From contig CALXAH010000001.1 of assembly GCA_944386225.1 (NCBI GenBank), forward strand, positions 108,161 to 172,160: a stretch of 64,000 bases of DNA. The letters are read 5' to 3'. Positions 4,923 through 42,006 of the stretch are shown here, piece by piece. Source of the DNA: an uncultured Gemmiger sp. (GTDB taxonomy: Bacteria > Bacillota > Clostridia > Oscillospirales > Ruminococcaceae). Numbering within the stretch: position 1 is the stretch's first letter; each line of letters starts with the position of its first letter. Position numbers and translations under genes: made by a program. Below the pieces are notes generated by a model, which searched no databases, was not told the DNA's origin, and saw nothing but the letters and a program-made list of their open reading frames with translations.

Positions 4923-6332
<1,410 letters not shown>

Positions 6333-21904: not shown

Positions 21905-21939
21905 TGTCTTTTCCCCCCTCGGGCGGTCAGTACCGCCGG

Positions 21940-23139
21940 TTACTCCAGATATTCCACCTCATCCCGCCAGTCGATGCGGATGCGCTCCACCTCGGCCGCG
22001 GCCTTTTTCTCCAGTTCGGCCAGGCCGGGCATGGCCTCCTCCGCCGCCCGGATCTCCTCCAGGGTGGGGCGGGTCTTGGGGTGGGGCGGGGTGAAGATGG
22101 TGCAGCAATCCTCATAGGGCAGGATGCTGGTTTCAAAGGCGCCGATCGCCCGGCTGGTGGCCACGATCTCGCTCTTGTCCATGCCGATCAGCGGGCGCAG
22201 CACCGGCAGGGGCTGCACCTCGTCGGTGCAGGCCAGGGCCCGCAGGGTCTGGCTGGCCACCTGGGCCAGGCTTTCGCCGGTCACGATGGCCTGGCAGTCG
22301 ATGCTCTCGGCGATCTGGTGGGCGATGCGCAGCATACTGCGGCGCATGAGCACGGTGAACAGCGGCGCGGGGCCGTGATCCCGGATGTACTCCTGGGGCT
22401 CGGTATAGGGCACCACATACAGCACGCAGCTGCCGGTCCACTCGCTGACGATCTGGGCCAGCGCCTTGACCTTCAGCTTGGCGCGCTCGCTGGTGTAGGG
22501 CGGGCTGGCAAAGTGGATGTGATGCAGCGCCAGGCCGCGGCGGGCCATCCGCCAGGCGGCCACCGGGCTGTCGATACCGCCGCTGAGCATGTTCAGCGCC
22601 CGGCCGCTGGTACCCACCGGCAGGCCGCCCGCGCCGGGCACCTTATCCCCGTGTACGTAGGCGGCAAAGTCCCGCACCTCCACCATGACGGTCAGGTCCG
22701 GGTTGTGCACGTCCACCTTCAGATGGGGGAACCGGCTCAGCAGATACCCGCCCAATTCCCGGCTGATCTCGGGGCTCTTCATGGGGAACCGCTTGTCCGA
22801 CCGCTTGGCCTCCACCTTGAAGGTGCGGGCGGCGCGCAGGGAGCCGGCCAGGTACTCCCCGGCGGCGGCGCAGATGGCGTCGAAGTCCTTTTCGCAGACG
22901 GCGGCCCGGCTCATGGCGGCGATGCCGAACACCCGGCTCACCCGGCGGAAAGCCTCGTCCATATCCGCGTCCTCGGTTTCGGGCTCAATGTACAGGGTGC
23001 TCTGGGCCTTGTAGACCTTGAACTCCCCCAGATCCCGCAGGCGGAACCGCACCGCTTTGGCCAGGGATGCTTCAAAGGTGGCCTTGTTCAGACCTTTCAG
23101 GGCCATTTCGCCCTGGTAGCACAGGATGATCTGTTTCAT
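21940..23139 (-). CDS. thiI: tRNA 4-thiouridine(8) synthase ThiI
   Basis: 399 aa. THUMP-type N-terminus and PP-loop 'SGGIDSPVAAW'. Confidence 0.93.
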   Translation of the reverse strand: MKQIILCYQGEMALKGLNKATFEASLAKAVRFRLRDLGEFKVYKAQSTLYIEPETEDADMDEAFRRVSRVFGIAAMSRAAVCEKDFDAICAAAGEYLAGSLRAARTFKVEAKRSDKRFPMKSPEISRELGGYLLSRFPHLKVDVHNPDLTVMVEVRDFAAYVHGDKVPGAGGLPVGTSGRALNMLSGGIDSPVAAWRMARRGLALHHIHFASPPYTSERAKLKVKALAQIVSEWTGSCVLYVVPYTEPQEYIRDHGPAPLFTVLMRRSMLRIAHQIAESIDCQAIVTGESLAQVASQTLRALACTDEVQPLPVLRPLIGMDKSEIVATSRAIGAFETSILPYEDCCTIFTPPHPKTRPTLEEIRAAEEAMPGLAELEKKAAAEVERIRIDWRDEVEYLE

Positions 23140-23199
23140 GTTGTTCCTCTCGTCTTCCTTTTTAGGATACGCGCCCGGGCGGGCGCATTCTGTCGGTTT

Positions 23200-24345
23200 T
23201 CAGCGCAGCCGGGCCAGCTTTGCCAGCCCGTCCTCCAGGCCGGTGAGCAGCTCGTCAATGTCCTGTTCGGCGTTGTCGCCGCACAGGCTGATGCGCAGGG
23301 CGGTGTCGATGGCCCGGGCGGACAGCCCCATGGCCGCCAGCGTATGGCTGGCCGCCCCCTTGCTGCAGGCCGATCCGCTGGACACATACACCCGCCGCTG
23401 TTCCAGAAAATGCAGCATGGTCTCGCTGCGGATCACGTTCAGGCTGATGTTCAGAATCTCCGGCACCGCGTCGTCGGGGCTGTTCACCGTAACTTCCGGC
23501 AGTGCCGCCACACCCTGCCGCAGCCGGGCGTTCAGCGCCGCCACCCGGGCCTTGCGCTCCCGGCTGTTCGCGGCCATGAGCCGGGCGGCCTCGCCCAGGC
23601 CCACCGCATAGGGCACGTTCTCGGTGCCGGGACGGATGCCCTTTTCCTGCCCGCCGCCCAGGTACGGCGGCTCGATGTGGTAGCCCTTGCGCAGATAGAG
23701 CGCGCCGATGCCCTTGGGGGCGTGCACCTTGTGGCCGGACACGGTGAAGCTGTCCACCCCGGCCAGCGCCGCGGGCACCCGCAGCCAGGCCTGCACCCCG
23801 TCCACATGGACGGCGGTGCGGGGGTTGCGCGCCTTGACCAGGCGGGCCAGGGTCTCCACATCGGCCACCGCGCCGGTCTCGTTGTTCACCTGCATGCAGG
23901 TTACCAGGCAGGTACCCTTATCCACCCGGTCGGCCATGGCGGTCATGTCGATGCGGCCGTCCGGCCCGGGCGGCACAAACACCACCTCGAAGCCTTCCTT
24001 GCCCAGCTGTTCCACCGGCAGGGCGGCGCTGGGATGCTCGTACCCGCTGCACAGGATCTTTCTGCCCCAGCCTTTGCGGGCGATTGCCGCGCCCCGCAGC
24101 GCCAGGTTGTTGCTCTCGCTGCCGCAGGCGGTGAAGTACACCTCCCCCGGTGTGCAGCCCAGGGTTTTGGCCACCTGGGCCCGGGCCTTGCCCAGCGCCT
24201 GCTGGGCCTGCAGGCCCGGCGTATACAGCGCCGAAGGATTGGCCCACAGATCGGTCATGGCGGCGCGGATGGCGTCGGCCACCGCCGGGTCCACCCGGGT
24301 GGTGGCGGCGTTGTCCAGATAATGCAGCGTTTCGTCGTGGAGCAT
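23200..24345 (-). CDS. Cysteine desulfurase (NifS/IscS class V aminotransferase)
   Basis: PLP-lysine context 'SGHKVHAPKGIG' and active-site Cys 'SSGSACS'. AAGAGGG RBS upstream of the ATG at 24345. Adjacent to thiI. Confidence 0.92.
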   Translation of the reverse strand: MLHDETLHYLDNAATTRVDPAVADAIRAAMTDLWANPSALYTPGLQAQQALGKARAQVAKTLGCTPGEVYFTACGSESNNLALRGAAIARKGWGRKILCSGYEHPSAALPVEQLGKEGFEVVFVPPGPDGRIDMTAMADRVDKGTCLVTCMQVNNETGAVADVETLARLVKARNPRTAVHVDGVQAWLRVPAALAGVDSFTVSGHKVHAPKGIGALYLRKGYHIEPPYLGGGQEKGIRPGTENVPYAVGLGEAARLMAANSRERKARVAALNARLRQGVAALPEVTVNSPDDAVPEILNISLNVIRSETMLHFLEQRRVYVSSGSACSKGAASHTLAAMGLSARAIDTALRISLCGDNAEQDIDELLTGLEDGLAKLARLR

Positions 24346-24536
24346 GAAGGACCCTCTTTTTCGCAAAAATCACGGATGGGCAAATGCGCCCATAAAAATA
24401 CAGAATATAGTATACAACAAAATTTTCGCCCGCACAAGCCGCAGCCGGGCGGGCGGATTGTCACCGCCGCCGGAAGGTGGTACAATGAACGGGAACAAGA
24501 ATGCGCGCCGCGCAAAACTGACGGGGAGGATGCTGC

Positions 24537-26201
24537 ATGAAGACTGATATTCAGATCGCACAGGAAGCCACCATGAAACCCATCCGGGAGGTGGCCGCCG
24601 GCCTGGGCCTGACCGAGGACCAGATCGTACCCTACGGCAAGTACAAGGCCAAGATCGACCACCGGCTGCTCAAACAGCCCCACAAGGAGGGCAAGCTGAT
24701 CCTGGTGACCGCCATCAGCCCCACCCCGGCGGGCGAGGGCAAGACCACCACCAGCGTGGGCCTGGCGGACGCCATGTGCGCCATGGGCAAAAAGACCATG
24801 CTCTGCCTGCGGGAGCCCAGCCTGGGGCCGGTGTTCGGCATCAAGGGCGGCGCGGCCGGCGGCGGCTATGCCCAGGTGGTGCCCATGGAGGACATCAACC
24901 TGCATTTCACCGGTGACCTGCACGCCATCGGCGCGGCCAACAACCTGCTGGCGGCCATGGTGGACAACAGCATCTACCAGGGCAACCCTCACAACATCGA
25001 CCCCCGCCGGGTGACCTGGAAGCGCTGCGTGGATATGAACGACCGGCAGCTGCGGTATGTGACCGATGGTCTGGGCGGCAAGGTGAACGGCACCCCCCGG
25101 GAGGACGGTTTTGACATCACGGTAGCCAGCGAGGTCATGGCGATCTTCTGCCTGGCCACCGACCTGGCCGATCTGAAAGCCCGGCTGGGCCGGATCGTGG
25201 TGGGCTACACCTACGCGGGCGAGCCGGTGACCGCCGGCCAGATCGGCGCGGCGGGCGCCATGGCCGCCCTGCTGAAGGACGCCATCGACCCGAACCTGGT
25301 GCAGACGCTGGAGAACAACCCGGCCATCATCCACGGCGGACCCTTTGCCAACATTGCCCACGGCTGCAACAGCGTGATGGCCACCCGGCTGAGCCTGGCG
25401 CTGGCGGATTACGTGGTCACCGAGGCGGGCTTCGGCGCGGATCTGGGCGCGGAGAAGTTCCTGGACATCAAGTGCCGCAAGGCGGGGCTGAACCCGTCGG
25501 CGGTGGTGCTGGTGGCCACGGTGCGGGCGCTGAAGCATCACGGCGGCTGCCCCAAGGATCAGCTGGGGGTGCCCAGCGTGGACTACCTGGCCGCGGGCGT
25601 GCCCAACCTGCTGCGCCATCTGGACAACATGAAAAATCAGTTCGGCCTGCCGGTCTGCGTGGCGATCAACGCCTTCCCCACCGACAGTGCCGAGGAGCAC
25701 GAGTATCTGCGCAAGGTCTGTGCCGAGCAGGGCGTGCCCTGCGCGCTGAGCGAGGTGTTCGCCAAGGGCGGCGAGGGCGGCAGAGAGCTGGCCCAGGCGG
25801 TGCTGGATATCCTGGATGAGAACGCCCGCATCCGCTTCACCTACCCGGACGAGGCCCCGCTGGCCGACAAGGTCAAGGCGGTCTGCCAGAAGATCTACCG
25901 GGCCAAGGATGTGACCTGGGCCCCGGCCGCCCGCAAGGCGCTGGACGAGATCACCGCCCAGGGCTACGGCGATCTGCCGGTGTGCATCGCCAAGACCCAG
26001 TACAGCTTCTCGGACAACGCGGCGCTGCTGGCCGCGCCGGAAGGCTTTGTGATGAATGTGCGGGACGTGCGGCTGAGCGCCGGCGCCGGCTTTGTGGTGG
26101 TGATCATGGGCAGCATCATGACCATGCCCGGCCTGCCCAAGAAGCCCGCCGCCGAGAGCATCGACGTGGACGAGAACGGCCGCATCACCGGGTTGTTCTG
26201 A
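24537..26201 (+). CDS. fhs: Formate--tetrahydrofolate ligase
   Basis: 554 aa with P-loop '[10 protein letters not shown]'. The sequence is highly typical of Fhs from end to end. Confidence 0.97.
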
Positions 26202-27016: not shown

Positions 27017-27766
27017 ATGTATGAGATCGCTGTGGTGGAGGACGACGCAGTCGATCGTGAACGTCTGGTAGAACTTTTGCGGCAGCAATGCGGCGCTGCC
27101 GCCCATATCACCGTGGCAGACCCGGGGTTTGAACCGGAGACCTGCGCATTCACGCCGGACATTCTGTTTCTGGATGTGCTGCTGGGTACCCAGAGCGGCA
27201 TCCGCCTGGCGGAGGTTGCCAACCGGCTGTGGCCCCGCTGCCAGGTAATTTTTGTGACCGGGCGGCTGGAATACGCCCCGGATCTGTATCAGGCCCGGCA
27301 TCTGTGCCTGCTGAGCAAGGCCCGTCTGGAGGAATTGCTGCCCGGCGCGCTGCATCGCGCGTTCACGGCCCTGGATGCGGACGATACCCCTCTGCTGGCG
27401 GTCGCCCAGAAAAACGGCGAGGTCATTATTCCGCAAAAGGACATTCTGTATGTGGAGCGGCGGCTGCGCATCTCCTACATTCATTCGACGCTGCGCACCG
27501 TAACCACCGGCCGTCGCCTGGATGAACTGGCCGGCGATCTGCAGCCGGGCCGTTTTGCGCTGTGCCACAACAGCTTTCTGGTCAATCTGGCCCAGGTGCG
27601 CCGGCTGCAGCGCAATCAGGTTCTGCTGACCGGCGGGGTAGTGCTGCCGGTATCCCGCTCTCAGTTCGGGCCTTTCCGGGAGGCGCTGGGCCGCCATATC
27701 GGCATTGATCTGGCCCATCACGGGGTTTCCGTGCTGCCGGAAGATCCGGACCCGGAAACCACCTGA
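27017..27766 (+). CDS. LytTR/AgrA-family response regulator
   Basis: Receiver domain ('IAVVEDD', 'DILFLDV') plus a LytTR DNA-binding C-terminus ('ILYVERR...HNSFLVNLAQV'). Confidence 0.88.
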   Translation: MYEIAVVEDDAVDRERLVELLRQQCGAAAHITVADPGFEPETCAFTPDILFLDVLLGTQSGIRLAEVANRLWPRCQVIFVTGRLEYAPDLYQARHLCLLSKARLEELLPGALHRAFTALDADDTPLLAVAQKNGEVIIPQKDILYVERRLRISYIHSTLRTVTTGRRLDELAGDLQPGRFALCHNSFLVNLAQVRRLQRNQVLLTGGVVLPVSRSQFGPFREALGRHIGIDLAHHGVSVLPEDPDPETT

Positions 27767-27803
27767 CCGCTTTCCGTTCTGGCAAAACACGCCTTTATAT
27801 TGT

Positions 27804-27840
27804 CAGCCGGCGCTGTACCAGTCGCCGGCTGTTTTTGTTT
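27804..27840 (+). terminator. Intrinsic terminator between the response-regulator and kinase genes
   Basis: 9-bp stem: CAGCCGGCG (27804..27812) pairs with CGCCGGCTG (27823..27831). TTTTTGTTTT follows. Confidence 0.75.
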
Positions 27841-27876
27841 TCCGACTTTTTCCGTTTTATACGAAAGGAGCCGCCT

Positions 27877-29187
27877 ATGTCTGTTCTGAGCACGGTATGC
27901 CGGTTTGCGACCATTGCCGTCATTCAGTGCATCGTACTGCTCAGCCTGCGCCGCTGTGTGCCTGCGGGCCGGCTGTTCTGGCCCTGTACCGGGCTGATGG
28001 TCCTGCTGTCCGCTTTGGGGGTCTGCCCGCCTTTCTCCCTGTCTCCGTTTGTATCCGCCCTGGCGCTGGTGCTGGAACCCCTCTGCCTTACCCTGCCCTT
28101 CCGCCCCCGCGCCCGGGAATCGGTCACCTGCTTCTTTCTGATCTTTTATCCCTTTGTCCTGTTCATGATCCTGTACGAGCTGGCCCTGACGCTGGCAGGC
28201 TTCACCGTGCTGTTTGTGCCTCTCACCTGGCGCCAGATCCCCGGTACTGTTCTGCGGCTTCTTCCGGTTCTGGGCGGGCTGTGGGTATTCTGCCGCCTGC
28301 CGTCCTGGTTTTCCGCCTGGCGGCGGCTGCCGGTCTGGGTGCCCATCGGCCTGATGACGGCCGACCGGCTGGGCGGGCTGTTTTCCCTGGGGATGGAGGC
28401 CCGTGGCCTGATCCCCAGCAGCGGCCTTTCTCTGGATTCACTGCTGCTGTTGGGCTGCTTTTCCTCGGTGGTTCTGGTACTGGGAATTGCCGCGGCGCTG
28501 CTGGTCCGGCAGGACCGGCGCAGCACCCGGCTGTATATCGAGCAGCTGGAACGGCAGCGGCGGCTGGAGCTGGACTATTACCGCAGCCTGTCCGACACAT
28601 TGCAGGAGTTCCGGCTGCTGCGGCATGATCTGCGCCATTACCTGAACCTGCTGGGGGACGCCCCGGCCCAGCTGCGCCAGGATCTGCAGGCCACCCTGGA
28701 TCACGCCGGGCAGGTGGAGCTGTGCGGCGACCCGTACCTGAACGCGGTGCTGTTCGGTAAAATGCGCCTGGCCCGGGAAAAGCAGGTGCACCTGGAAGCC
28801 CGGGCCGCCCTGGACGGCCCCGCCCCGGTATCCGGCTCCGCGCTGATCTGCGCCGCCTCCAACCTGCTGGAAAACGCGCTGGAAGCCGCCCATCCCGGGG
28901 AGACGGTGGAGCTGACCGCCGTTTGCCGGGCCGGAATGCTGGTGATGGAGATTACCAATCCCCTGCATGAGGGGGATATCTTCCCACCGCGACAGGGGTT
29001 CAGCCGCAAGGGCGGTTCACTGCATGGACTGGGGATTACCAGTGTGCGCCGGGTACTGGCTGAGGCGGACGGTTCCCTGACGCTGGAGACTCGGGAAGGC
29101 CGGGCGGTAGCCCGGGTGCTGCTGCCCTGCCTGCCGCCGGACGCATGCACCGACGCGGCACGCCCTCACCCGTTGAACGATCTTTGA
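27877..29187 (+). CDS. AgrC/ComD-like (HPK10-type) membrane sensor histidine kinase
   Basis: About 6 TM helices. H-box 'LRHDLRHYLNLL' and GHKL ATPase motifs 'NLLENALEA' and 'HGLGITSVRR'. AAGGAG RBS upstream of the ATG at 27877. Confidence 0.8.
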   Translation: MSVLSTVCRFATIAVIQCIVLLSLRRCVPAGRLFWPCTGLMVLLSALGVCPPFSLSPFVSALALVLEPLCLTLPFRPRARESVTCFFLIFYPFVLFMILYELALTLAGFTVLFVPLTWRQIPGTVLRLLPVLGGLWVFCRLPSWFSAWRRLPVWVPIGLMTADRLGGLFSLGMEARGLIPSSGLSLDSLLLLGCFSSVVLVLGIAAALLVRQDRRSTRLYIEQLERQRRLELDYYRSLSDTLQEFRLLRHDLRHYLNLLGDAPAQLRQDLQATLDHAGQVELCGDPYLNAVLFGKMRLAREKQVHLEARAALDGPAPVSGSALICAASNLLENALEAAHPGETVELTAVCRAGMLVMEITNPLHEGDIFPPRQGFSRKGGSLHGLGITSVRRVLAEADGSLTLETREGRAVARVLLPCLPPDACTDAARPHPLNDL

Positions 29188-29190
29188 TTC

Positions 29191-29245
29191 AAAGAAAAAC
29201 AGCCGGGCGCTCCCCATTTACGCGGGAGCGCCCGGCTGTTTGCTT
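29191..29245. terminator. Bidirectional terminator
   Basis: Perfect 17-bp stem (29198..29214 pairs with 29224..29240). Flanked by an A-rich tract on the left and TGCTTG on the right. Confidence 0.8.
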
Positions 29246-29342
29246 GCGGGCAGGGCCCGCCCGGCGGTTGCTGGTCCACCGGACGGACTCTATAGGGGGC
29301 ACGGACGGCTATGCGCCGCCCGCACTCTGCCCGGTGAACCCG

Positions 29343-29645
29343 TCATGCCGAGCGAAGCGCCGGGCGACGGGTCTTATGGGAAGCGGCGGAGCAAAAGGGT
29401 GCGGACACCGTTTTCACCCCGGCCGGCCGGGCAGCTTGCCGGTGCAGCCGCACAACACGGGCAGCCGCGGCGCGGCGCTGTGTTCTGCGGGCCAGATACG
29501 AAGCACGGCGGGCCGCAAGGCCCAGCAGCACAAGGATGGCCAGTGCCGCAGGCACAGGCAGGGTATCCTCGATCAGGGCGCCCGCCGCCGGGAACAACCC
29601 CAGTACGGCCAGTATGGCAGCACATTGCAGCAGATAGCGTTTCAT
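29343..29645 (-). CDS. Small membrane protein with two predicted TM helices and an Arg-rich tail; no recognisable family
   Basis: AAGGAGG lies 8 nt upstream of the ATG. Hydrophobic segments 'YLLQCAAILAVLGLFPAAGALI' and 'LPVPAALAILVLLGLAA'. A promoter and operators lie upstream. The true C-terminus is uncertain. Confidence 0.5.
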   Translation of the reverse strand: MKRYLLQCAAILAVLGLFPAAGALIEDTLPVPAALAILVLLGLAARRASYLARRTQRRAAAARVVRLHRQAARPAGVKTVSAPFCSAASHKTRRPALRSA

Positions 29646-29689
29646 CGCGATGACCTCCTTGTTTTGGGTGACATTGCTTCGTTGGGTTT

Positions 29690-29718
29690 ATCATAATACA
29701 ACTCGCAGTTGTTGTCAA
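29690..29718 (-). promoter_or_regulatory. Sigma-A-type promoter for the small membrane-protein gene
   Basis: On the minus strand: TTGACA (29713..29718), a 17-nt spacer, then TATGAT (29690..29695). Overlapped by operators O1 and O2. Confidence 0.6.
29698..29712. promoter_or_regulatory. Operator-like palindrome O1
   Basis: ACAACT-CGC-AGTTGT, perfect 6+6 inverted repeat. Confidence 0.65.
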
Positions 29719-29733
29719 GCGTATTTTGACAAC
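29711..29733. promoter_or_regulatory. Operator-like palindrome O2
   Basis: GTTGTCAA-GCGTATT-TTGACAAC, perfect 8+8 inverted repeat. It shares the GTTGT/ACAAC half-site with O1 and O3. Confidence 0.65.
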
Positions 29734-29761
29734 TTTTTTTAGTTTAATTTTGGAATTCCCC

Positions 29762-29790
29762 TTTACATGCACTACGATTAGTTGTATAAT
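29762..29790 (+). promoter_or_regulatory. Sigma-A-type promoter of the XRE-S24 repressor gene
   Basis: TTTACA (29762..29767), a 17-nt spacer, then TATAAT (29785..29790). The -10 box sits inside palindrome O3. Confidence 0.65.
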
Positions 29791-29795
29791 ACAAC
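29781..29795. promoter_or_regulatory. Operator-like palindrome O3
   Basis: GTTGTATAATACAAC, a perfect 15-nt palindrome around the -10 box. Confidence 0.65.
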
Positions 29796-29815
29796 CATGC
29801 AAAGGAGGGAGTAGT

Positions 29816-30430
29816 ATGTTCAGTGAACGCCTGAAAGCTCTCCGCAAAGAACGAAAGCTCAGCCAGGCCGCCCTCTCCGCCCAGCTGGGGGTAACGCAGC
29901 AGGCCGTGGGCAAATGGGAGACCGGCCGTTCCACACCGGATCCGGCCACTGTGGCCCGCCTGGCCGCACTGCTGGGCACCACAACCGACATGCTGCTGGG
30001 GGTATCCCCCGCGCCGCAGGATTTCGGCGGCCCGGTGGGCGCCTATATGGAAAGCCCGGTGCCGGTGGTGGGCAGCGTGCGCGCCGGGTACGGGGCGCTG
30101 GCCTTTGAAGAGGATTACGGCACCGAACCCGCCCCCGTGAAAGACCCGGAGAATTACTTCTACCTGGTGGTCAAGGGCGACAGCATGGAACCCCGCATCC
30201 ACGACGGGGATTACGCGCTGGTGCGCCGTCAGCCTACCCTGAACAACGGGGATCTGGGCGTGATGGTCTTTGACGAGGGTGAGGGTACCCTGAAACGGTA
30301 CATCCGCCGGGGCAATGCGGTAATTCTGCAGCCCTTCAACCCGGACTATCCGGAAAAGGTCATCCGGGGCGCGGATCTGGAGCGGCTGTACATTGCCGGC
30401 AAGGTGGTCGAGACCAAGACCAAGTGGTAA
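29816..30430 (+). CDS. XRE-family HTH plus S24 (LexA/CI-like) self-cleaving peptidase-domain repressor
   Basis: HTH_XRE 'LSQAALSAQLGVTQQAVGKWETG'. Ala-Gly cleavage context 'SVRAGYG', Ser in 'KGDSMEP' and Lys in 'GTLKRY'. AAAGGAGGGAG RBS. Confidence 0.88.
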   Translation: MFSERLKALRKERKLSQAALSAQLGVTQQAVGKWETGRSTPDPATVARLAALLGTTTDMLLGVSPAPQDFGGPVGAYMESPVPVVGSVRAGYGALAFEEDYGTEPAPVKDPENYFYLVVKGDSMEPRIHDGDYALVRRQPTLNNGDLGVMVFDEGEGTLKRYIRRGNAVILQPFNPDYPEKVIRGADLERLYIAGKVVETKTKW

Positions 30431-30771
30431 GGCGCCGGTCGGGGCGTTTTGCCTTTCCGGCCTGTCTGTATTCTAGCATGCGGGCAGGGCGATAAATCGG
30501 ATTATCAAAAGGGCCGCGGCGGGATTTTCCGCGGCGGCCCGGGTTTTCCGCCCTTTTCGAAAAGAAGAGCGGAGGGCCTGGTTTTTTGCGGCCTTTTTGC
30601 GAAAAGGCCGCGCGCCCGGCGCGGAGAATGGGAAGCCCGCGCCCGGCGCGCCGAAGCGGTGCGGCAAAGCCAGCAGCTTTTCCGCGCAGCGCTGCATCCG
30701 GCAGCGGTCAGGGGGCCCGCCGCCTTTGTTCCGGCATACCGGCCGGAACGGAGAGGGACGGGCCTTTTTCT

Positions 30772-32106
30772 ATGGATCTGATGGAAAAACTTTCCATTCT
30801 GGCGGACAGCGCCAAATACGACGTGGCCTGCACCAGCAGCGGTGTGGACCGGGGCGGTGCGCCGGGCGCGCTGGGCAGCTGCCATGCGCCGGGCATCTGC
30901 CACACCTTTACCGCCGACGGCCGCTGCGTGAGCCTTTTAAAGGTTCTGATGACCAACATCTGCGCCTACGACTGCCGTTACTGCACCAACCGCCGCTCGG
31001 AGGACCGGCCCCGGGCGGCCTTTACCCCGGAGGAACTGGCGGAACTGACCATCCAGTTTTACCGGCGCAACTACATCGAGGGGCTGTTTTTATCCAGCGC
31101 GGTACTGGTAAGCCCGGATTACACCATGGAGCGGATGATCCGGGTGCTGGAACTGCTGCGGGGGCCGTACCGGTTCCGGGGCTACATCCACGCCAAGACC
31201 ATTCCGGGGGCGGACCCGGCGCTGGTGCACCGGATGGGTCTGCTGGCCGACCGGCTGAGCGTAAACATCGAGCTGCCCAGCGAGGCCAGTCTGAAACTGC
31301 TGGCCCCGGACAAGCAGAAAACCGGCATCCTGCGGCCGATGGGGCTGATTGCCCGCACCGCCGCCGAGAACCGCCGGGAACTCACCGTTTACCGGCACGC
31401 CCCGGCCTTTGCCCCCGCCGGGCAGAGCACCCAGATGATCGTGGGGGCCAGCCCGGAGAGCGATTACCAGATTCTGCAGCTCACCGAGGGGCTGTATCAG
31501 AAATACAGCCTGAAACGGGTGTTTTTCTCCGCCTATGTGCCGGTCTGCCGGGACGAGCGGCTGCCTGCGCTGGACACAAAGCCGCCGCTTCTGCGGGAGC
31601 ACCGGCTGTACCAGGCGGACTGGCTGCTGCGGTATTACCAGTTTTCCGCCGGGGAGATCCTGAGCCCGGAGGCCCCCAACTTTGACCCCTGGCTGGACCC
31701 GAAATGCAACTGGGCGCTGCACCATCTGGATCAGTTTCCGGTGGACGTGGAGCGCTGCGACTACGAGATGCTGCTGCGGGTGCCGGGCATCGGGCCCAAG
31801 AGCGCCCGGCGCATCCGCACCGCCCGGCGGCACGGCCGTCTGCGGCTGGAGGATCTGCGCCGTATCGGGGTGGTGCTGCGGCGGGCCCGGTATTTCATTG
31901 TATGCAGCGGATACGCGGGCCCCGGCCGGCTGAGCCGGATAACGGTGGCCCAGGCGCTGCTGGACCCGGGGGTGTTTGAGGGCGGCGCCCGGCAACTGAG
32001 TTTGTTTGACGATCCGGCCGGGCGGCTGAGCGCCCCGGATCATCCCGCCCTGCCCATGGCAGCGGCACGAGAGGAGGCGGCGGCATGGCTGTCCAGGCGG
32101 ATGTAG
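30772..32106 (+). CDS. Putative DNA modification/repair radical SAM protein (TIGR03916-like)
   Basis: CX3CX2C motif 'CAYDCRYC'. N-terminus 'LSILADSAKYDVAC' and a C-terminal HhH-like 'LLRVPGIGPKSARRI'. The start is uncertain (ATG 30772 or 30781). The ORF-track N-terminal extension is non-coding. Confidence 0.85.
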   Translation: MDLMEKLSILADSAKYDVACTSSGVDRGGAPGALGSCHAPGICHTFTADGRCVSLLKVLMTNICAYDCRYCTNRRSEDRPRAAFTPEELAELTIQFYRRNYIEGLFLSSAVLVSPDYTMERMIRVLELLRGPYRFRGYIHAKTIPGADPALVHRMGLLADRLSVNIELPSEASLKLLAPDKQKTGILRPMGLIARTAAENRRELTVYRHAPAFAPAGQSTQMIVGASPESDYQILQLTEGLYQKYSLKRVFFSAYVPVCRDERLPALDTKPPLLREHRLYQADWLLRYYQFSAGEILSPEAPNFDPWLDPKCNWALHHLDQFPVDVERCDYEMLLRVPGIGPKSARRIRTARRHGRLRLEDLRRIGVVLRRARYFIVCSGYAGPGRLSRITVAQALLDPGVFEGGARQLSLFDDPAGRLSAPDHPALPMAAAREEAAAWLSRRM

Positions 32107-32843
32107 TGTATCGGTACGACGGCAGCTTTGAGGGCTTTTTAAGCTGCGTGTTTGAAAGTTTTCTGCGCAAGGAGATCCCCTTTGCGATCTATCCCGACCG
32201 GGCGGCCTGGCCCACCCTGTTCCCCATCCGGCGGGTGCCCACCGATCCGGCGCGGGCGGCCCGGGTGTTCGACAGCTTTGAAAAGAAGCTGGGCACCCGT
32301 ACCCGGGATCTGGTGACCCGGGCCTTTCTGAACGACAGCCCGGACAAGGAACTGACCCTGCTGCGGTTTCTGCACTTTGCCTACGGGCAGGGTCCCCGGG
32401 CCCCCTGGATGCAGGGGCACGAGCGGGTGGCCCCGGTGCTGGCGCTGGAAAAGGCGGTGAACGGGGAAGCCCACCTGCTGACCGGGTTTGTGCGGTTTGA
32501 GCAGCGGGGCGGCGCGCTGGGGGCGGTGATCCAGCCCCGGCATTTTGTGCTGCCCTTGCTGCGGCAGCATTTCTGCAACCGATACCCGGGAGAGGATTTT
32601 GTGATCTGGGACAAGACCCACCGGGCGGTACTAGCGGTGCAGGCGGGCCGGGCGGAATATCTGGAACTGGCCACCGATCCGGACCTGCCGCCTCCCGACG
32701 AGGAGGAAGCCCGGTTCCAGGCCATGTGGCGGGCCTTTTACGACGCACTGGCCATTCCGGCCCGGTACAATCCGAACCTGCGACGCAGCCACTGCCCCAA
32801 GCGGTACTGGGCCTGCATGACCGAACTGCGGGACCGGCTGTGA
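32085..32843 (+). CDS. DUF4130/TIGR03915-like probable DNA metabolism protein, the usual partner of the radical SAM protein
   Basis: 252 aa with 'VVYRYDGSFEGFLSCVFESF' near the N-terminus. GAGAGGAGG RBS. Its start overlaps the end of the radical SAM gene by 22 nt. Confidence 0.75.
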   Translation: MAVQADVVYRYDGSFEGFLSCVFESFLRKEIPFAIYPDRAAWPTLFPIRRVPTDPARAARVFDSFEKKLGTRTRDLVTRAFLNDSPDKELTLLRFLHFAYGQGPRAPWMQGHERVAPVLALEKAVNGEAHLLTGFVRFEQRGGALGAVIQPRHFVLPLLRQHFCNRYPGEDFVIWDKTHRAVLAVQAGRAEYLELATDPDLPPPDEEEARFQAMWRAFYDALAIPARYNPNLRRSHCPKRYWACMTELRDRL

Positions 32844-33611: not shown

Positions 33612-33656
33612 ACAGGGCCCGCGCCGTTTGATCGGCGCGGGCCCTGTTCTGTTTTT
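33612..33656. terminator. Bidirectional terminator
   Basis: Perfect 15-bp stem: ACAGGGCCCGCGCCG pairs with CGGCGCGGGCCCTGT. TCTGTTTTT follows. Confidence 0.85.
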
Positions 33657-35145
33657 ATTCCTCGCCAAACGGTACCGCCGGGTCGTCGTTGGGGTAGAAC
33701 TGCAGCGCGTCCTGCACCAGGGCAAAGGCACTGTTCAGGCCGGTGTTGCCGGTCTGCCGGGCCTCCAGGGCCGAGCAGACCGGATACTGAAAGGCGCTGG
33801 TCTGGTGGACATAGTTCACCCAGCTGTCCACGATCCAGCCGTCGCTGACCTCCTGTACGGTGTAGGTCAGGTAGCCGCGCCGGTTCTCGGCGCGGCGGGG
33901 CAGCGAGAAGGAGGCAAACACATCCCGCCGCTGCTCCTCTCCCCAGAACATGCTGGTTGCGGTGTAGCTCTGCTCGCCCAGATACGCATAGGGGGCGGTC
34001 ATCGTCTGCCCGTTTTGCTCGCAGAGCAGCCGGCCGGTGACCGGTTCGGCCTCGGCCCAGCCCTCCGGCAGCAGGTCGTAGACCGGCCAGAGCTGGATGC
34101 ACTCGGTGCCCCACCAGGGGGCCGGTTCCATCCACTGGAAATGCTGGAACAGCTTCCACTGCTCCCGCTCGCCGGGCAGTTCCACGGCTACGCCGGTACT
34201 GCGCAAAGCGCCCTGCCGGCCCTGAATGCCGAAATCGGTCAGCGGCAGATCCCGCTCCGACACCACCACCCGCCTGGCGCCCCGGCAGGCCAGCACCTCA
34301 TCGTCGGTCAGGTCGGCCAGCACCGTTTCCGGGAAGCCCATCGCGGCCAGTTCCTGCCGCACGACGGCCGCCTGCGGGTCGGCGGAGGGGGCCGCGGGCT
34401 GCCAGTCCATGGGGATGCGGCCGCCAAAGCCATACCCCGCCGCCAGGCCCAGCACCAGCACCAGGGCCAGCAGCACCATAAGCATCCGGTCGGACAGGCG
34501 GGACGGGGCGGGGTGCAGCCCGTAGCCGGTTGTTTCCATCTCCCGGCTCAGCCGATACAAACGGTAGAGAATCAGCAGATAGGCCCCGATCATGGCCAGC
34601 GGGATCAGCAGCCCGTTATACCGCACCAGAGCCAGGGCGTACAGGCCCGCGTACCAGACCACCAGCCAGCCCGCGCCGGTACCCTGGGCCCGGCCCGCGG
34701 CCCGGCGCACCTGATCCAGGCCCTGCCACAGGCAGACCAGCTGCCCCAGCTGAGTAAGCAGGCTCACACCGGTCAGCACCGCCATGACCGCCTGCCCGGC
34801 GGGGGTCTGCCGCCAGAGAAAGGCGTTCAGAATCAGTATCCCCCATACTGCTCCTGTGCGCACCGCCGACACCATCCAGCCCGCCCGCAGCCAGGGGTTC
34901 TCCCGCCGCAGCGTCCGGAAAGCCAGCAGGCAGAGTAGCGTGCCCAGAGCGGGCAGCCAATACTGCAGCCCCCCTACCTGCAGGGTGATGCCGGTGAGCG
35001 CCAGGCCCCACACCAGCTGCTCCATCACCCGCCGCCAGGGGGTGACCGCCCGGGCCACCTCGTCCGGGGGCGGGTCGGGCAGGCTGGCGGCCAGCAGCCG
35101 GTCGAACTCCGCGTCGCCGGGGGCGTTCCAAAGCCGCTTATCCAT
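33655..35145 (-). CDS. Polytopic membrane protein in the anti-sigma position, with a C-terminal extracytoplasmic domain of about 250 aa of unknown family
   Basis: Its start overlaps the sigma-gene stop (ATGGATAA). It has a short cytoplasmic N-terminus, about 6 TM helices, then a soluble domain. GGGAGGTGA RBS. Confidence 0.6.
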   Translation of the reverse strand: MDKRLWNAPGDAEFDRLLAASLPDPPPDEVARAVTPWRRVMEQLVWGLALTGITLQVGGLQYWLPALGTLLCLLAFRTLRRENPWLRAGWMVSAVRTGAVWGILILNAFLWRQTPAGQAVMAVLTGVSLLTQLGQLVCLWQGLDQVRRAAGRAQGTGAGWLVVWYAGLYALALVRYNGLLIPLAMIGAYLLILYRLYRLSREMETTGYGLHPAPSRLSDRMLMVLLALVLVLGLAAGYGFGGRIPMDWQPAAPSADPQAAVVRQELAAMGFPETVLADLTDDEVLACRGARRVVVSERDLPLTDFGIQGRQGALRSTGVAVELPGEREQWKLFQHFQWMEPAPWWGTECIQLWPVYDLLPEGWAEAEPVTGRLLCEQNGQTMTAPYAYLGEQSYTATSMFWGEEQRRDVFASFSLPRRAENRRGYLTYTVQEVSDGWIVDSWVNYVHQTSAFQYPVCSALEARQTGNTGLNSAFALVQDALQFYPNDDPAVPFGEE

Positions 35146-35677
35146 CCCGCTCACCTCCCAGACTGTCCCGCAGCCGCATCCGCAGCCGGTAGAGCCGCCC
35201 CTCCACCGCCCGCTCGGTCAATCCGGTCTCCCGGGCGATCTGGGCGGTGGACTGACGGTAGTAGTATTTCCGGTAGAACAGTACCTGTTCCGCCTCCGGC
35301 AGGGCGGCCACCGCCCGGCGCAGCGCGGCCTGACGCTCGCTCTGCATCACCGACTCCTCCGGCGAGGGGCCGGGGGCGGGGGCATCCTCCGGCAAAGCGT
35401 CCGCGCCGCTGCGCCCGGCTTTGCGGGCCAGGTTCAGCGCCGTGTTGCGGGTGACGGCGGTCACCCAGGCCACCCAGCCGCCCCGGGCCGGGTCATAGCG
35501 TTCAATGCCGTTCCACACCCGCATGGCCGCCTCGGAGACGCACTCCTCCGCGTCCCGCCCGTCGGGCAGGATGGGCGCGGCCACATACCGCATCAGCGGG
35601 CCGTACTCCGCCAGCAGCGCGCGCATCCCCTGCTCGTCCTTTTCGCGCAGCAGGGCGATCAGTTCCTCCTGGCGCAT
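35138..35677 (-). CDS. ECF-type RNA polymerase sigma-70 family factor
   Basis: 179 aa. Region 2 'AEECVSEAAMRVW...WVTAVTRNTALN' and region 4 HTH 'STAQIARETGLTERAVEGRLYR'. AAGGAGG RBS upstream of the ATG at 35677. Confidence 0.88.
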   Translation of the reverse strand: MRQEELIALLREKDEQGMRALLAEYGPLMRYVAAPILPDGRDAEECVSEAAMRVWNGIERYDPARGGWVAWVTAVTRNTALNLARKAGRSGADALPEDAPAPGPSPEESVMQSERQAALRRAVAALPEAEQVLFYRKYYYRQSTAQIARETGLTERAVEGRLYRLRMRLRDSLGGERDG

Positions 35678-35821
35678 GGGGCCGCCTCCTTTCCCCGGAA
35701 ATTTCTTTTCTATCCCATTATACACACCAAAACGGGAAAACCCACGGCCCCGCCGGAAAAAGCGCGCAAAAAAGCGGGGCGCTGTGCTTTGCGGCACACG
35801 CCCCGCCTGTTCGGCGATCCT

Positions 35822-36377: not shown

Positions 36378-36412
36378 ACAAGGCTTCAACGCGCAAACCG
36401 TTGAAGCCTTGT
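36378..36412 (-). terminator. Terminator of the activase-exonuclease operon
   Basis: Perfect 13-bp stem: ACAAGGCTTCAAC (36378..36390) pairs with GTTGAAGCCTTGT (36400..36412). On the minus strand TTGTTATAAT follows. Confidence 0.7.
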
Positions 36413-36423
36413 CGGATTTTCTG

Positions 36424-37398
36424 TTATCGTCCCGCCTGGGCCACCCGTTCCTGGGCGGCGCGGCGCAGCCGGGCCAGGGCCTTGGCCTTCTGGGCCTTCC
36501 ACTGGGCCAGCTGGGCCTCGGTGGGGGTCTCGGTCACCCGGGCGACGCTCCAGTGCAGGCCGTCCCGGCGGGCCAGCTTGAACCGCACCATAAAGCCACC
36601 GTGGGCGGCGCACTCGTACAGGCTGTAGTAGCCGGTGTTGCCCCGGCGCAGCCACACGTCGTGGGGGTCGGGCTTCATGGCCGCGCCGCACACCGGGCAG
36701 GCGGCGTTTTTCAGCGTCTCCTGCTCCCGGAAGTCCTCCCGCTGGATGTGGCCGGGGCTGTAGACAAAGTCCGCAAACTGCCCCTCGCCGCCGCAGAGGG
36801 TGGCGCGCAGGGAGTCCTCCTCCGAGGGGTAGGCGGCCAGACCGGCGGCCAGATCCAGCTGCTGGCAGACCCGGGCGGTGTATTTCGCGTCGCTGAGGGC
36901 GTCGTGGAAGGGCTCGTCCTTTTCGATGCCCAGCCGCTCCACCACGCTTTCCAGGGTCATGCCCTCGCCCTCCGCCCGGCCGCGCTGGGCCAGAAACACC
37001 TGCTGCAGGTCGTACCAGCGGTGGGGCCAGCTCTCATCCAGCCCGTTCAGGAACAGGTTCTGCTTGAGCACCGGCACGTCGTCCATGCCCCATTCGCCGA
37101 ACGCCGCGTCCGGGCCGCACCAGTCCATAAACCGGCGCAGGCCCTCCTTGATGGGTACGCCCGCGTCCAGTTGGCTCTGGGTCATGCCGGTGACCTTGGC
37201 GATGTGGTGGTGCAGCTTGCGGAACAGCCGGGGCCGCAGGTTCAGCTGCAGGCTGTCCAGCATGCGGCCGGCTTCGTCCACCTTTACCGCACCGATCTGG
37301 ATCAGCTCGCCCCGCAGGGTCTGCTCCGCGCCGTGGTAGTCGAACAGATAGGGCTTGTAGCCCATGTTCCATTCCAGGTCAAAGATGATGAGCTGCAT
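36424..37398 (-). CDS. DEDDh 3'-5' exonuclease (KapD/ERI-1-like) with a C-terminal Cys-containing extension
   Basis: Exo motifs 'IIFDLEWN', 'IQIGAVKV' and 'FHDALSDAKY'. C-terminal 'CPVCGAAM...YECAAHG'. AAGGAGGAACC RBS. Confidence 0.85.
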   Translation of the reverse strand: MQLIIFDLEWNMGYKPYLFDYHGAEQTLRGELIQIGAVKVDEAGRMLDSLQLNLRPRLFRKLHHHIAKVTGMTQSQLDAGVPIKEGLRRFMDWCGPDAAFGEWGMDDVPVLKQNLFLNGLDESWPHRWYDLQQVFLAQRGRAEGEGMTLESVVERLGIEKDEPFHDALSDAKYTARVCQQLDLAAGLAAYPSEEDSLRATLCGGEGQFADFVYSPGHIQREDFREQETLKNAACPVCGAAMKPDPHDVWLRRGNTGYYSLYECAAHGGFMVRFKLARRDGLHWSVARVTETPTEAQLAQWKAQKAKALARLRRAAQERVAQAGR

Positions 37399-37407
37399 GG
37401 TTCCTCC

Positions 37408-38730
37408 TTATACAGGGGCAGCGCTGCTGATCTGGGGCGCCTGCCCGTAGAACGGATTTTCCTCGTGAGGGACGGCCTCGCCGCCCGATTCCAGCCGCTC
37501 CCGGCCCACCGCCAGCATCAGCTTGATGCGGTTTTCCTGATTGACGCGGGTGGCGCTGGGGTCGTAGTCGATGGGGGTGATGTTGGCCTGGGGATACAGC
37601 GCCCGGATCTTGCCCACCATGCCCTTACCGCAGATATGGTTGGGCAGGCAGCCGAAAGGCTGGGCGCAGACGATGTTCTCATAGCCGCTCTGCACCAGCT
37701 CGATCATCTCGGCGGTAAGCAGCCAGCCCTCGCCCATCTTGTTGCCCATGCCGATGATGCCGTCGGGCAGGGTGCGCAGCACGCTGAACGGGGCCGGGGC
37801 GTGGTAGCCCGCGTCCTTCAGCGCGCCGCAGAGGGCCTTTTCCAGCCCGTCCAGCCAGCGCAGCAGCAGTTCGGGGGCCAGCTCCTCCAGCTTGCTGCCG
37901 CCGTACAGCCGCACGGTTTCGCTCATATTGAAGCAGCAGTACTGCACGAAGCCCAGCAGGCCCGGCAGGTTGACCTCACAGTCCTGGGAGGCCAGGAACT
38001 CCTCCAGATTGTTGTTGCCCAGGGGGGAGTATTTCACGTAGATCTCCCCCACCACCCCGACCTTGACCTTGGGGGTATGGGTCTTGGGGATGGCGGCGAA
38101 CTCCTTGGCGATCACCGGGAAGGTGCGCTTCATCTCCGGGGCGGAGTAGCCCTTGCCCGCGCGGAACTGCTTGGAAAGCGCGGCGATCCACGTATCGGTG
38201 AGGGCCTCGGCGGCGCCCTTTTCGTCCTCGTAAGGGGCGGTCTGGTTGCGCAGCGCCATGAGCAGATCGCCGTAGAGCACGGCGGCAATCAGCATCCGGG
38301 CCAGGGGCAGGGTCATCTGGAAGCCGCTGTCCTTTTCCAGGCCGGAGAAGTTCAGGCTGGCCACCGGCACCTGCTTGTAGCCGGCCTTGTACAGGGCCTT
38401 GCGCAGCAGGTGGATGTAGTTGGAGGCCCGGCAGCCGCCGCCGGTCTGGGTGATCAGCAGGGCGGTGTGGTCCAGATCGTACCGGCCGCTGTTCAGCGCG
38501 TCCAAAAACTGGCCGATGACCAGCAGAGCCGGGTAACAGGTATCGTTGTGGACATATTTCAGCCCCAGCTGGGCCACCTGCTCGCCGCAGTTGCCCAGCA
38601 GTTCCACCCGGTAACCTTCCCGTTCCATGGCCGCTTTCATCAGCTTGAACTGCAGCGGGGCCATGTTGGGCACCAGAATGGTATGGGTGCGCTTCATGTC
38701 CTTGGTAAATTTTGCGGTGGTGTATTCCAT
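37408..38730 (-). CDS. DUF2229-like protein related to 2-hydroxyacyl-CoA dehydratase subunits; the usual partner or C-terminal part of long BadF/BcrA-type activase proteins
   Basis: 440 aa with 'LVPNMAPLQFKLMKAAMEREGY', 'NDTCYPALL' and 'GGGCRASNY'. GTGAGGTGA RBS. It starts 9 nt after the upstream gene ends. Confidence 0.72.
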   Translation of the reverse strand: MEYTTAKFTKDMKRTHTILVPNMAPLQFKLMKAAMEREGYRVELLGNCGEQVAQLGLKYVHNDTCYPALLVIGQFLDALNSGRYDLDHTALLITQTGGGCRASNYIHLLRKALYKAGYKQVPVASLNFSGLEKDSGFQMTLPLARMLIAAVLYGDLLMALRNQTAPYEDEKGAAEALTDTWIAALSKQFRAGKGYSAPEMKRTFPVIAKEFAAIPKTHTPKVKVGVVGEIYVKYSPLGNNNLEEFLASQDCEVNLPGLLGFVQYCCFNMSETVRLYGGSKLEELAPELLLRWLDGLEKALCGALKDAGYHAPAPFSVLRTLPDGIIGMGNKMGEGWLLTAEMIELVQSGYENIVCAQPFGCLPNHICGKGMVGKIRALYPQANITPIDYDPSATRVNQENRIKLMLAVGRERLESGGEAVPHEENPFYGQAPQISSAAPV

Positions 38731-38739
38731 GGTTTCACC

Positions 38740-41667: not shown

Positions 41668-42006
41668 ACCGTTACCTCCCTCTCCCTTGCACCGTCCCCC
41701 GACGGCGCAAAACAAAAAAAGAACGAATCAACCGCGCGGCCCGACCGGGCCCTACAGGCCCGCGGACACGCGCGGCAGGTTTGGATGCACTGTCCGAACC
41801 GCCGCGGCGGGCCCGTCCGTCCGGGGGCCTTCCCAGCCGGGCAAACGGCCTCGCAGCGCGCTTTTTGCGGGCCGTGCGGCAATAATTTAGTACACGTTAC
41901 ATATTAAAACACTCCACTCGACAAAATGTCAAGTGGTTTGCCCCTGACAGCTGCCCAAAGGCAGATTTTGCCGCAAAAACCCGGGCAAAAAGCGCGGAAT
42001 CCCCTC

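Follow-up and report, generated by a model that had tools for sequence, protein, structure and literature searches.

The FddR repressor of Francisella, a phage-type S24 protein that the bacterial chromosome has co-opted throughout its clade, regulates its own synthesis as well as a divergent gene whose function is unknown; it has been described as a divergently transcribed and self-contained unit, out of which SOS networks can be built anew (PMC13148647). HdiR of Lactococcus and Streptococcus and the non-canonical LexA proteins of Bacteroidetes likewise combine a helix-turn-helix (HTH) domain of the XRE/CI type with an S24 domain carrying the Ala-Gly, Ser, and Lys determinants of self-cleavage, and they serve as SOS-type repressors in place of or beside LexA; the Bacteroidetes family is restricted to its phylum (PMC8565304). 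Here, we analyzed a divergent gene pair at positions 29343-30430 of a 64-kb stretch of DNA from an uncultured Gemmiger sp. (contig CALXAH010000001.1; the whole stretch is called the window below). The pair consists of a gene for an XRE-S24 repressor and a gene for a small membrane protein, separated by an intergenic region of 170 bp. With a probability of about 0.55, we favor the reading that the locus represents an SOS-like module of the chromosome, self-contained and similar in kind to HdiR, FddR, and the non-canonical LexA proteins, that is common to the Faecalibacterium-Gemmiger-Subdoligranulum-Allofournierella clade and works by the mechanism set out further below.

Conceptually, FddR was the closest match, since the window repressor is also a co-opted, phage-type chromosomal S24 protein found clade-wide. 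The two systems differ in several respects. FddR is associated with the motif GTG-N11-CAC, whereas the motif of the window is ACAAC-N5-GTTGT, and its hosts are Gammaproteobacteria, an unrelated clade. The cargo of FddR is not a small protein with two transmembrane (TM) helices, and linkage to a radical-SAM/DUF4130 gene pair, as found here, is absent. In addition, FddR is backed by RNA-seq and electrophoretic mobility shift assays, whereas the module described here is predicted from sequence. The targets of HdiR are umuC-type polymerases, and the Bacteroidetes proteins govern a whole SOS regulon; for the window, only a local unit was seen, to which no error-prone polymerase is linked. A phage-derived S24 repressor that runs a local SOS-like unit is of a known kind; here, it would do so in an important, poorly studied clade and together with a small-protein family that had escaped notice. 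Faecalibacterium, Gemmiger, and Subdoligranulum rank among the most abundant gut commensals of humans and animals. A literature search for these three genera found nothing specific on a DNA-damage response, and the combination of Faecalibacterium with LexA returned reviews only.

The rightward gene (29816-30430, + strand) encodes a protein of 204 residues with matches to Pfam HTH_3 (5e-16) and Peptidase_S24 (3e-25). This agreed with the first-pass annotation, a reading of the DNA letters that had preceded our analysis and had described an XRE HTH fused to an S24 peptidase; the start codon is at 29816 and not at 29817. The determinants of self-cleavage are intact. In an alignment with Thermotoga LexA (3k2z), VPVVGSVRAGYG matched the cleavage-site region, KGDSM the segment with the nucleophilic Ser, and TLKRY the segment with the general-base Lys, so that counterparts existed for all three motifs singled out earlier ('VRAGYG', 'GDSMEP', and 'TLKRY'). 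The predicted cleavage site is A90-G91, the nucleophile S123, and the general base K160. The recognition helix reads T27-Q28-Q29-AVGKWE.

To place the protein among its relatives, we relied on a genome scan in which 247 stretches encoding a relative of the repressor were found and 80 loci with 65-100% identity were kept. They were derived from Gemmiger, Subdoligranulum, Faecalibacterium, Allofournierella, Ruthenibacterium, and related organisms, and 6-10 kb of DNA on each side of the repressor locus were examined. The window repressor was 100% identical to a protein of Candidatus Gemmiger avium (L021), and the window is assigned to this species. Across 81 orthologs, Ala90-Gly91 was conserved in 100% and Ser123 and Lys160 in 99% of the sequences. 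The QQAVGKWE segment of helix 3 was also conserved in all of them, and conservation of the interdomain linker amounted to merely 25%. The ratio of non-synonymous to synonymous substitution rates (dN/dS) in pairwise comparisons was 0.03-0.05. Thus, with its catalytic and recognition residues maintained and its dN/dS low, the repressor behaves as a core, functional, cleavage-competent regulator.

A canonical LexA identity was considered and rejected. The LexA model TIGR00498 reached 71.2 bits against a cutoff of 110.95, and the match was confined to residues 79-198, i.e. the S24 half; the N terminus is an HTH_3/XRE domain instead of the LexA winged helix. The earlier statement that the HTH is not LexA-type was therefore correct. 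A tblastn search for canonical LexA or RecA in the window and in ~1 Mb of fetched loci gave the S24 half of the repressor as its sole match. Nor is the operator a Cheo box, in agreement with the first-pass annotation. GAAC-N4-GTTC did not occur in the intergenic region, and the single copy in the window (at 8343) corresponded to chance level.

Both divergent promoters were recovered by a promoter scan, which detected three promoter-like sites in the region where 0.4 were expected. The leftward promoter P_left (29690-29718, - strand) consists of a -35 element TTGACA (29718-29713), a 17-nt spacer, and a -10 element TATGAT (29695-29690). The repressor promoter P_right (29762-29790, + strand) consists of TTTACA (29762-29767), a spacer of equal length, and TATAAT (29785-29790). 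Each promoter agreed with the consensus at 11 of 12 positions. The GTTGTTGTCAAG block of P_left was invariant across genera, and TTTACA was found at the identical position in 75 of 76 loci.

The region between the genes is also where the inverted repeats of the window are concentrated. ACAAC occurred 47 times and GTTGT 57 times in the 64 kb, and six of these copies were located within 100 bp in the divergent region, a clustering well in excess of chance. All four inverted ACAAC/GTTGT pairs with a gap of at most 16 bp in the window lay in the divergent intergenic region. Three perfect palindromes, named O1 to O3 in the first-pass annotation, were present as described: ACAACT-CGC-AGTTGT at 29698-29712, GTTGTCAA-N7-TTGACAAC at 29711-29733, and GTTGTATAATACAAC at 29781-29795. 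Comparison with relatives led to a different set of sites. When the intergenic regions of close relatives were aligned, the half-site arms were invariant and the spacers varied freely. With 76 loci anchored on the repressor -10 element, the recurring operator unit proved to be ACAAC-N5-GTTGT, arranged on a fixed grid. The 1.06 Mb of fetched DNA contained 116 such sites against 0.6 expected, and essentially all of them were at the repressor locus.

Three predicted operators of this kind were assigned in the window. O_A (ACAACTCGCAGTTGT, 29698-29712) is a perfect ACAAC-N5-GTTGT that lies wholly inside the 17-nt spacer of P_left. It is the only perfect site in the window, where 0.03 were expected, and 52 loci had a counterpart at a distance of ~73 bp on the upstream side of O_C (offsets from -69 to -75). 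O_B (ACAACTTTTTTTAGT, 29729-29743), located between the two promoters, has a perfect left half and a right half with two mismatches. Its ACAAC and an adjoining T-run were kept in nearly all loci at an offset of about -42 from O_C, and its right half was better in some relatives (GTTGT in L041; GTTGG in L034, L035, L037, and L039). O_C (ACTACGATTAGTTGT, 29771-29785), an ACTAC-N5-GTTGT with one mismatch, fills the spacer of P_right and abuts the -10 element. Its consensus was ACnnC-N5-GTTGT, with at most one mismatch in 54 of 76 loci and a GTTGT arm conserved at 96-100%. Within the predicted operator set of the repressor, O_C is the conserved autoregulatory site. The centers of O_A and O_B are 31 bp apart and those of O_B and O_C 42 bp, corresponding to 3 and 4 helical turns; the sites would therefore face the same side of the DNA, and they can probably be occupied cooperatively.

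O1 is identical to the conserved O_A. O2, on the other hand, turned out to be a composite in which the leftward -35 element is joined to one arm of each neighboring operator, the right one of O_A and the left one of O_B. Its 8-bp arms were found only in G. avium, and of its extra TTGA/TCAA bases those on the right side were not conserved in other species. O3 could be kept in part: its left arm is the right arm of O_C, but its right arm was specific to G. avium, being missing in L011 and L022 (ATACAGG; repressor 97% identical) and in other genera. The more general proposal of a divergent-promoter switch with several operators was in line with the comparison, as the predicted operators overlie both promoters and are conserved across species.

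The architecture was not constant in all relatives. A fourth ACAAC-N5-GTTGT was seen ~107 bp upstream of O_C in 45 loci, among them most loci of Gemmiger and Subdoligranulum, where it is part of the 5' leader of the small gene. It is absent from the window, and the number of operators therefore varies between species. In Gemmiger sp. An194 (L029), the operator block TCTACAACAACCGTCAGTTGTTGTCAATGG was located at ~4283 and the start of the repressor gene at 6001, i.e. at a distance of ~1.7 kb instead of ~100 bp, which suggests that an insertion separated the switch from the repressor gene. In L077, L078, L084, L087, L090, L094, L096, and L097, which belong to Faecalibacterium and related metagenome-assembled genomes, the small gene was lacking and a tRNA-like sequence was found upstream. 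These loci kept the TGTCAAG block, ACAAC with its T-run, and O_C; autoregulation therefore outlives the loss of the divergent cargo. A search of the window for further members of the regulon yielded two other sites with at most one mismatch (17154 and 54303). They were treated as chance occurrences because both are inside coding genes, one of the LCP family and one kinase-like.

The predicted switch resembles the CI-Cro switch of phages 434 and lambda in its XRE HTH joined to an S24 domain, its divergent promoters and three operators, Gln28-Gln29 at the beginning of the recognition helix, and the ACAA...TTGT signature. In the repressor of phage 434, Gln28-Gln29 contact the ACAA of the ACAA-N6-TTGT operator. 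The DNA-binding domain of this protein was 38% identical to that of the window repressor (BLASTP), and GVTQQ was aligned with GTTQQ so that Q28-Q29 were in register. The ACAAC half-site is independently supported, because the residues by which the 434 protein reads ACAA align with Q28-Q29 of the window repressor. Matches in the PDB extended the likeness to the DNA-binding domains of P22 C2, 434, and lambda CI, with which the N-terminal 62 residues could be aligned. The 434 operator has 14 bp (ACAA-N6-TTGT), whereas the one described here has 15 bp (ACAA-N7-TTGT), its dyad being longer by 1 bp. The operators of 434 and lambda are adjacent, whereas those of the window are 31 and 42 bp apart and each main site is placed inside a promoter spacer. 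Finally, the phage switches have a second repressor gene on the cro side; in the non-phage locus studied here, that side is occupied by the gene for a membrane protein.

A domesticated prophage immunity remnant would share many of these features. In that case, the product of the gene in the 'cro position' would be a membrane protein of the holin-like, superinfection-exclusion, or abortive-infection type, by which the cell is killed or protected once a phage or damage signal inactivates the repressor. CI/Cro-like divergent promoters, multiple operators, and a 434-like recognition helix are all compatible with such an origin, and phrog_4, a family of phage repressors of the CI type, matched the full-length repressor (1.1e-47, residues 2-201). 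In addition, the small protein has the predicted build of a class II holin, with two TM helices, both termini inside, and a charged, basic C-terminal tail. However, no integrase, capsid, lysin, or other phage gene was present in the 64 kb of the window, and an endolysin gene next to the small gene, as expected for a class II lysis cassette, was found neither in the window nor in the relatives. The neighbors are of a housekeeping chromosomal type (cysteine desulfurase, ThiI, CinA, formate-tetrahydrofolate ligase, SecA, LarA, and a CoA-enzyme activase, besides a LytTR/GHKL two-component pair and an extracytoplasmic function (ECF) sigma factor). The repressor locus was syntenic in >60 species of several genera, the left flanks of which differed between genera. 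Authentic phage repressors were at most 38% identical to the window repressor (32% for Faecalibacterium phage Aster), and the dN/dS of the repressor was ~0.04. We therefore regard the prophage remnant as unlikely, and the first-pass opinion that the locus is not a prophage immunity region is upheld by the lack of phage genes and by the synteny across genera. PADLOC gave generic matches of the HTH region (residues 1-68) to regulators of defense systems and no match to a defense effector; this also speaks against the remnant, and a defense system was rejected on the same grounds.

One database record called for separate consideration. A 4.6-kb unannotated 'Bacteriophage sp.' entry from human feces (GenBank MT839076.1) encodes a full-length repressor that is 64% identical to that of the window. 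Probably, the entry stems from a bacterial chromosome and was filed as phage by mistake.

The leftward gene (29343-29645, - strand) encodes a protein of 100 residues with a predicted two-TM helical hairpin, an IE(D/G)TLP loop motif, an Arg-rich tail assigned to the cytoplasm, and the C terminus ...PALRSA. It is preceded by the ribosome-binding site AAGGAGG (29654-29660, - strand), located 8 nt before the ATG, the CCTCC core of which was conserved in relatives. Length, hydrophobic hairpin, Arg-rich tail, and ribosome-binding site were thus as initially described. A strong intrinsic terminator (29191-29236, - strand) follows the gene and is made up of a GC-rich hairpin (29236-29200) and TTTTTCTTT; the histidine-kinase gene, which converges on it from the + strand, shares this terminator.

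No match to the small protein was found in Pfam, NCBIfam, PHROGs, or PADLOC. Sequence searches (BLAST and a word index) returned eight close relatives with 66-95% identity, and an exhaustive profile search of 1.84 billion representatives retrieved three clusters only. When an iterative hidden Markov model was applied to the open reading frames (ORFs) located upstream of the repressor, 66 of 80 species proved to have a family member in divergent orientation to the repressor gene. The dN/dS of the small ORF was 0.38-0.52 in its own frame; for the two alternative frames it was 0.74-1.83, and 17 of these 18 comparisons exceeded 1. Frameshifts did not occur, and the sole indel was an in-frame deletion of seven codons in P0004. 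With purifying selection acting on its own frame only and members in most species, the ORF is conserved, and its evolution is that of a coding gene. These patterns show it to be a genuine family, rapidly evolving and confined to the clade, that had previously gone unrecognized.

The family consensus comprises a short basic N terminus (net charge +1.8), a hydrophobic hairpin of ~42 residues without Lys or Arg, the loop of which contains a single Glu (A-x-E-G-T-L-P-L), and a variable tail of ~35 residues with a net charge of +6. This charge distribution predicts a topology with both termini inside and a cytoplasmic basic tail. An AlphaFold2 model based on a shallow alignment consisted of a helix (residues 2-25), a loop (26-30), a second helix (31-72), and a disordered tail.

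The best conserved part of the tail is its extreme C terminus. Position -3 was Arg, His, or Lys in 57 of 67 sequences, position -2 was Ala, Val, or Ser, and the last residue was Ala in 62 of 67. Typical ends were ...LRVVRGGRAA and ...ALRAA, besides ...PALRSA in the window. In control ORFs from the same regions, only 10% had Ala as the last residue and 2% had AA as the last pair. The ssrA tag and cleaved LexA, which ends with ...V-A-A, direct proteins to ClpXP/ClpCP (PMC12273997). Because of the resemblance of the Ala-COOH end to these two signals, the [R/H]-A-A end of the small protein is, by analogy, probably a degron of the ClpXP/FtsH type.

The predicted cleavage product of the repressor would itself end with ...V-R-A, and the likeness of this end to ...L-R-S-A and ...G-R-A-A gave rise to another explanation. 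The small protein could be a partner of the repressor, such as a co-repressor, an anti-repressor, or a membrane tether comparable to DdrR-UmuDAb or to LytTR membrane inhibitors, and its ...R-A-A terminus would then mimic the end of the cleaved repressor. The two genes strictly co-occurred in 66 of 80 loci, and there is a precedent for a small co-repressor working with an S24 regulator (PMC11332147). On the other hand, the strongest operator is the one in front of the small gene, which is what a repressed target would require. Moreover, the repressor does not need the small gene, because in 11 species the repressor is retained along with its O_C autoregulation although the small gene is missing. 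A partner role thus appeared very improbable.

The arrangement recalls lexA and its small divergent membrane genes, as had been pointed out with yneA, sosA, and chiZ as examples, in that the small gene is divergent from the repressor gene and lies behind the repressor's operator. Inhibitors of the YneA, SosA, and ChiZ type have a common position but no sequence homology, and the extreme C terminus of SosA acts as a turnover signal (PMC6851548). The protein described here differs in structure. YneA, SosA, and ChiZ have a single TM helix and an extracellular or LysM domain, whereas two TM helices and a cytoplasmic basic tail are predicted here; the protease implied is accordingly cytoplasmic (ClpXP or FtsH) as opposed to CtpA/DdcP. 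The regulatory half differs as well, as the present one involves neither a canonical LexA nor a Cheo box. The division inhibition or membrane toxicity suggested in the first-pass annotation is a hypothesis, as is RecA-dependent induction. A toxin of the TisB/DinQ type, which would have <40 residues, one TM helix, and an antisense or small RNA partner, was rejected: the protein has 100 residues and two TM helices, and an Rfam scan of 29000-31000 yielded nothing near a gathering score and hence no RNA family.

Downstream of the repressor gene, we found a pair of putative DNA-repair genes that had been missed in the first-pass annotation. The first (30772-32106, + strand) encodes a TIGR03916 protein with radical-SAM and helix-hairpin-helix domains (NCBIfam, 643 bits against a cutoff of 343.5; Pfam Radical_SAM and HHH). 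Its partner (32085-32843, + strand) belongs to TIGR03915/DUF4130 (210 bits against 112; Pfam DUF4130), and the two genes overlap by 22 nt (32085-32106). TIGR03916 followed the repressor in 65 of 80 loci, and TIGR03915 was present in 61. The full module was found in 51 of 70 informative loci. Where the repair pair was missing, the species carried downstream only a gene for a peptidyl-prolyl isomerase, a flavoprotein, or a member of the phosphoglycerate mutase family, and none of these was accepted as an alternative cargo.

The gap between the repressor and the radical-SAM gene ranged from 27 to ~1100 bp and was at most 65 bp in nine loci. No strong promoter or operator was detected in 58 such gaps or in that of the window. 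The gap of the window (30431-30771, + strand) contains GC-rich hairpins and short T-runs that may be partial terminators. Co-transcription of the repressor gene and the repair pair is likely in loci of the Faecalibacterium type, where the gap is ~35 bp, and uncertain in G. avium. In Bacteroidetes and other groups, the SOS regulon includes an operon related to the pair, COG1573-COG4277 (UDG/radical-SAM; PMC8565304), DUF4130 has been found in SOS gene-neighborhood networks (PMC3765255), and a 2026 preprint predicts a DUF4130/radical-SAM complex on single-stranded nucleic acid. The conserved presence of the radical-SAM/DUF4130 pair downstream of the repressor thus strengthened the predicted link of the locus to DNA damage.

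These results are compatible with the following mechanism for a damage-responsive module. In the repressed state, CI/434-type dimers of the repressor would bind to the 15-bp ACAAC-N5-GTTGT operators via Gln28-Gln29 of the recognition helix. Occupation of the strong O_A would block the leftward promoter, occupation of the weaker O_C, at lower affinity, would exert negative autoregulation, and the half-degenerate O_B probably assists through cooperative contacts. We propose that, as a consequence of operator occupancy, the small gene is tightly off and the repressor is autoregulated. The trigger would most likely be RecA-ssDNA (single-stranded DNA) filaments formed after DNA damage. Self-cleavage at Ala90-Gly91 by Ser123/Lys160 would part the HTH from the dimerization domain and open both promoters. 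The leftward transcript would give rise to the two-TM effector with both termini inside, which would be an inhibitor of the division or checkpoint type or else perturb the membrane. The rightward transcript would restore the repressor and, in most species, read into the radical-SAM/DUF4130 pair. After the end of the signal, fresh repressor would close the switch, and the effector would be cleared via its C-terminal tag.

A more far-reaching variant is that the XRE-S24 protein is the LexA replacement of the clade or a second SOS regulator and that its partner represents a new family of two-TM checkpoint proteins that are induced by damage and carry an [R/H]-A-A degron similar to ssrA and to the LexA fragment. 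One cytoplasmic protease, ClpXP or FtsH, would then clear both the repressor fragment and the effector and thereby time the exit from the checkpoint. We consider this variant doubtful.

Several observations weigh against a damage-responsive module. Typical SOS genes (recA, uvrA, and dinB) were not seen under the operator in the window or the fetched loci. The small protein lacks the structural hallmarks of YneA, SosA, and ChiZ, having two TM helices and a cytoplasmic tail but no LysM domain, and its structural model is of low confidence (pLDDT 65). Linkage of the cargoes is incomplete, as the repair pair was missing next to the small gene in eight species and the reverse was true of 11. About half of the repressor-radical-SAM gaps in other species hold terminator-like hairpins. 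In the window, the gap of 341 bp includes a hairpin of -27 kcal/mol in addition to the short T-runs; its length and the hairpin imply that the coupling of the repressor to the repair pair may be weak in G. avium.

The same weighing applies to PrlP of Streptococcus suis, which, like the window protein, is a conserved chromosomal self-cleaving XRE-S24 repressor of Firmicutes with a very small regulon; stress by acid, oxidants, osmolarity, or heat is what it responds to, and only one main target is known for it (PMC12273997). Following this example, the architecture described here could serve a non-damage input, the repressor being a sensor with a rate of self-cleavage set by pH, oxidative, or envelope stress, the small protein an effector of envelope stress, and the linked radical-SAM pair an agent of nucleic-acid modification unrelated to SOS. 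That HdiR responds to heat as well, that no canonical SOS gene is controlled by the operator in the DNA scanned, and that the TIGR03916/DUF4130 pair is biochemically uncharacterized would agree with such a role. PrlP itself differs in its size of 266 residues, its non-palindromic motif CCTGAAWCT, its acid, oxidative, and thermal stimuli, and its non-divergent target (PMC12273997). Against a non-damage input, Ala-Gly, Ser, Lys, and the cleavage region are conserved here as in RecA-responsive repressors, the COG4277/DUF4130 pair has repeatedly been associated with SOS in other phyla, and the positional analogy to lexA-yneA and lexA-sosA holds. A stress sensor of the PrlP type was therefore judged rather improbable, and an SOS-like module remained the preferred reading.

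The locus offers a testable entry point, with a defined repressor, a 15-bp operator suited to scans of whole genomes, a predicted cleavage site, and two cargoes. One cargo is an unannotated family of small membrane proteins that standard homology searches miss, and the TIGR03916/DUF4130 pair, which is widespread, makes up the second. Should the module be responsive to damage, it would be relevant to the way these bacteria cope with genotoxic drugs, to the induction of prophages in the gut, and to the seeding of SOS-like networks by phage-derived S24 units. If it does not, it is another well-conserved local pair of repressor and target.

Some neighboring genes of the window were also inspected. 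Genes for a response regulator of the LytTR type and for a membrane histidine kinase of the GHKL (HATPase_c_5) type are found directly upstream (27017-29187, + strand), convergent with the small gene, with which they share the bidirectional terminator. This pair was a neighbor only in the G. avium group and is probably unrelated to the switch, because other genera have different left flanks. For the same restriction to the G. avium group, the LytTR system was rejected as a regulator of a 'holin-like' small gene.

On the other side, an ECF-type sigma-70 gene (~179-219 residues, depending on the start codon) overlaps a gene for a protein of 496-499 residues without a Pfam match (33655-35797, - strand), which is probably a membrane anti-sigma factor. 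In Gemmiger, synteny of this pair with the module was seen in L001-L004, L011, and L014. In Allofournierella (L017 and L018), a sigma gene occupied the same position and was followed by other downstream genes. An RNase T/DnaQ-like exonuclease gene (36424-37398, - strand) is located ~6 kb downstream of the module and was syntenic in several close relatives (L001, L002, and L004).

The GC content fell to 0.51 at 43-44 kb, compared with ~0.65 elsewhere. This drop coincided with a gene for an alpha/beta-hydrolase-like protein of 629 residues (42576-44465, - strand), which may have been acquired horizontally. Very long spurious ORFs antisense to genuine genes were also encountered, e.g. at 21904-24540 and 36409-41907 (both + strand), as is typical of DNA with 65% GC. 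Lists of ORFs from the window therefore need to be filtered by the GC content of third codon positions or by homology.

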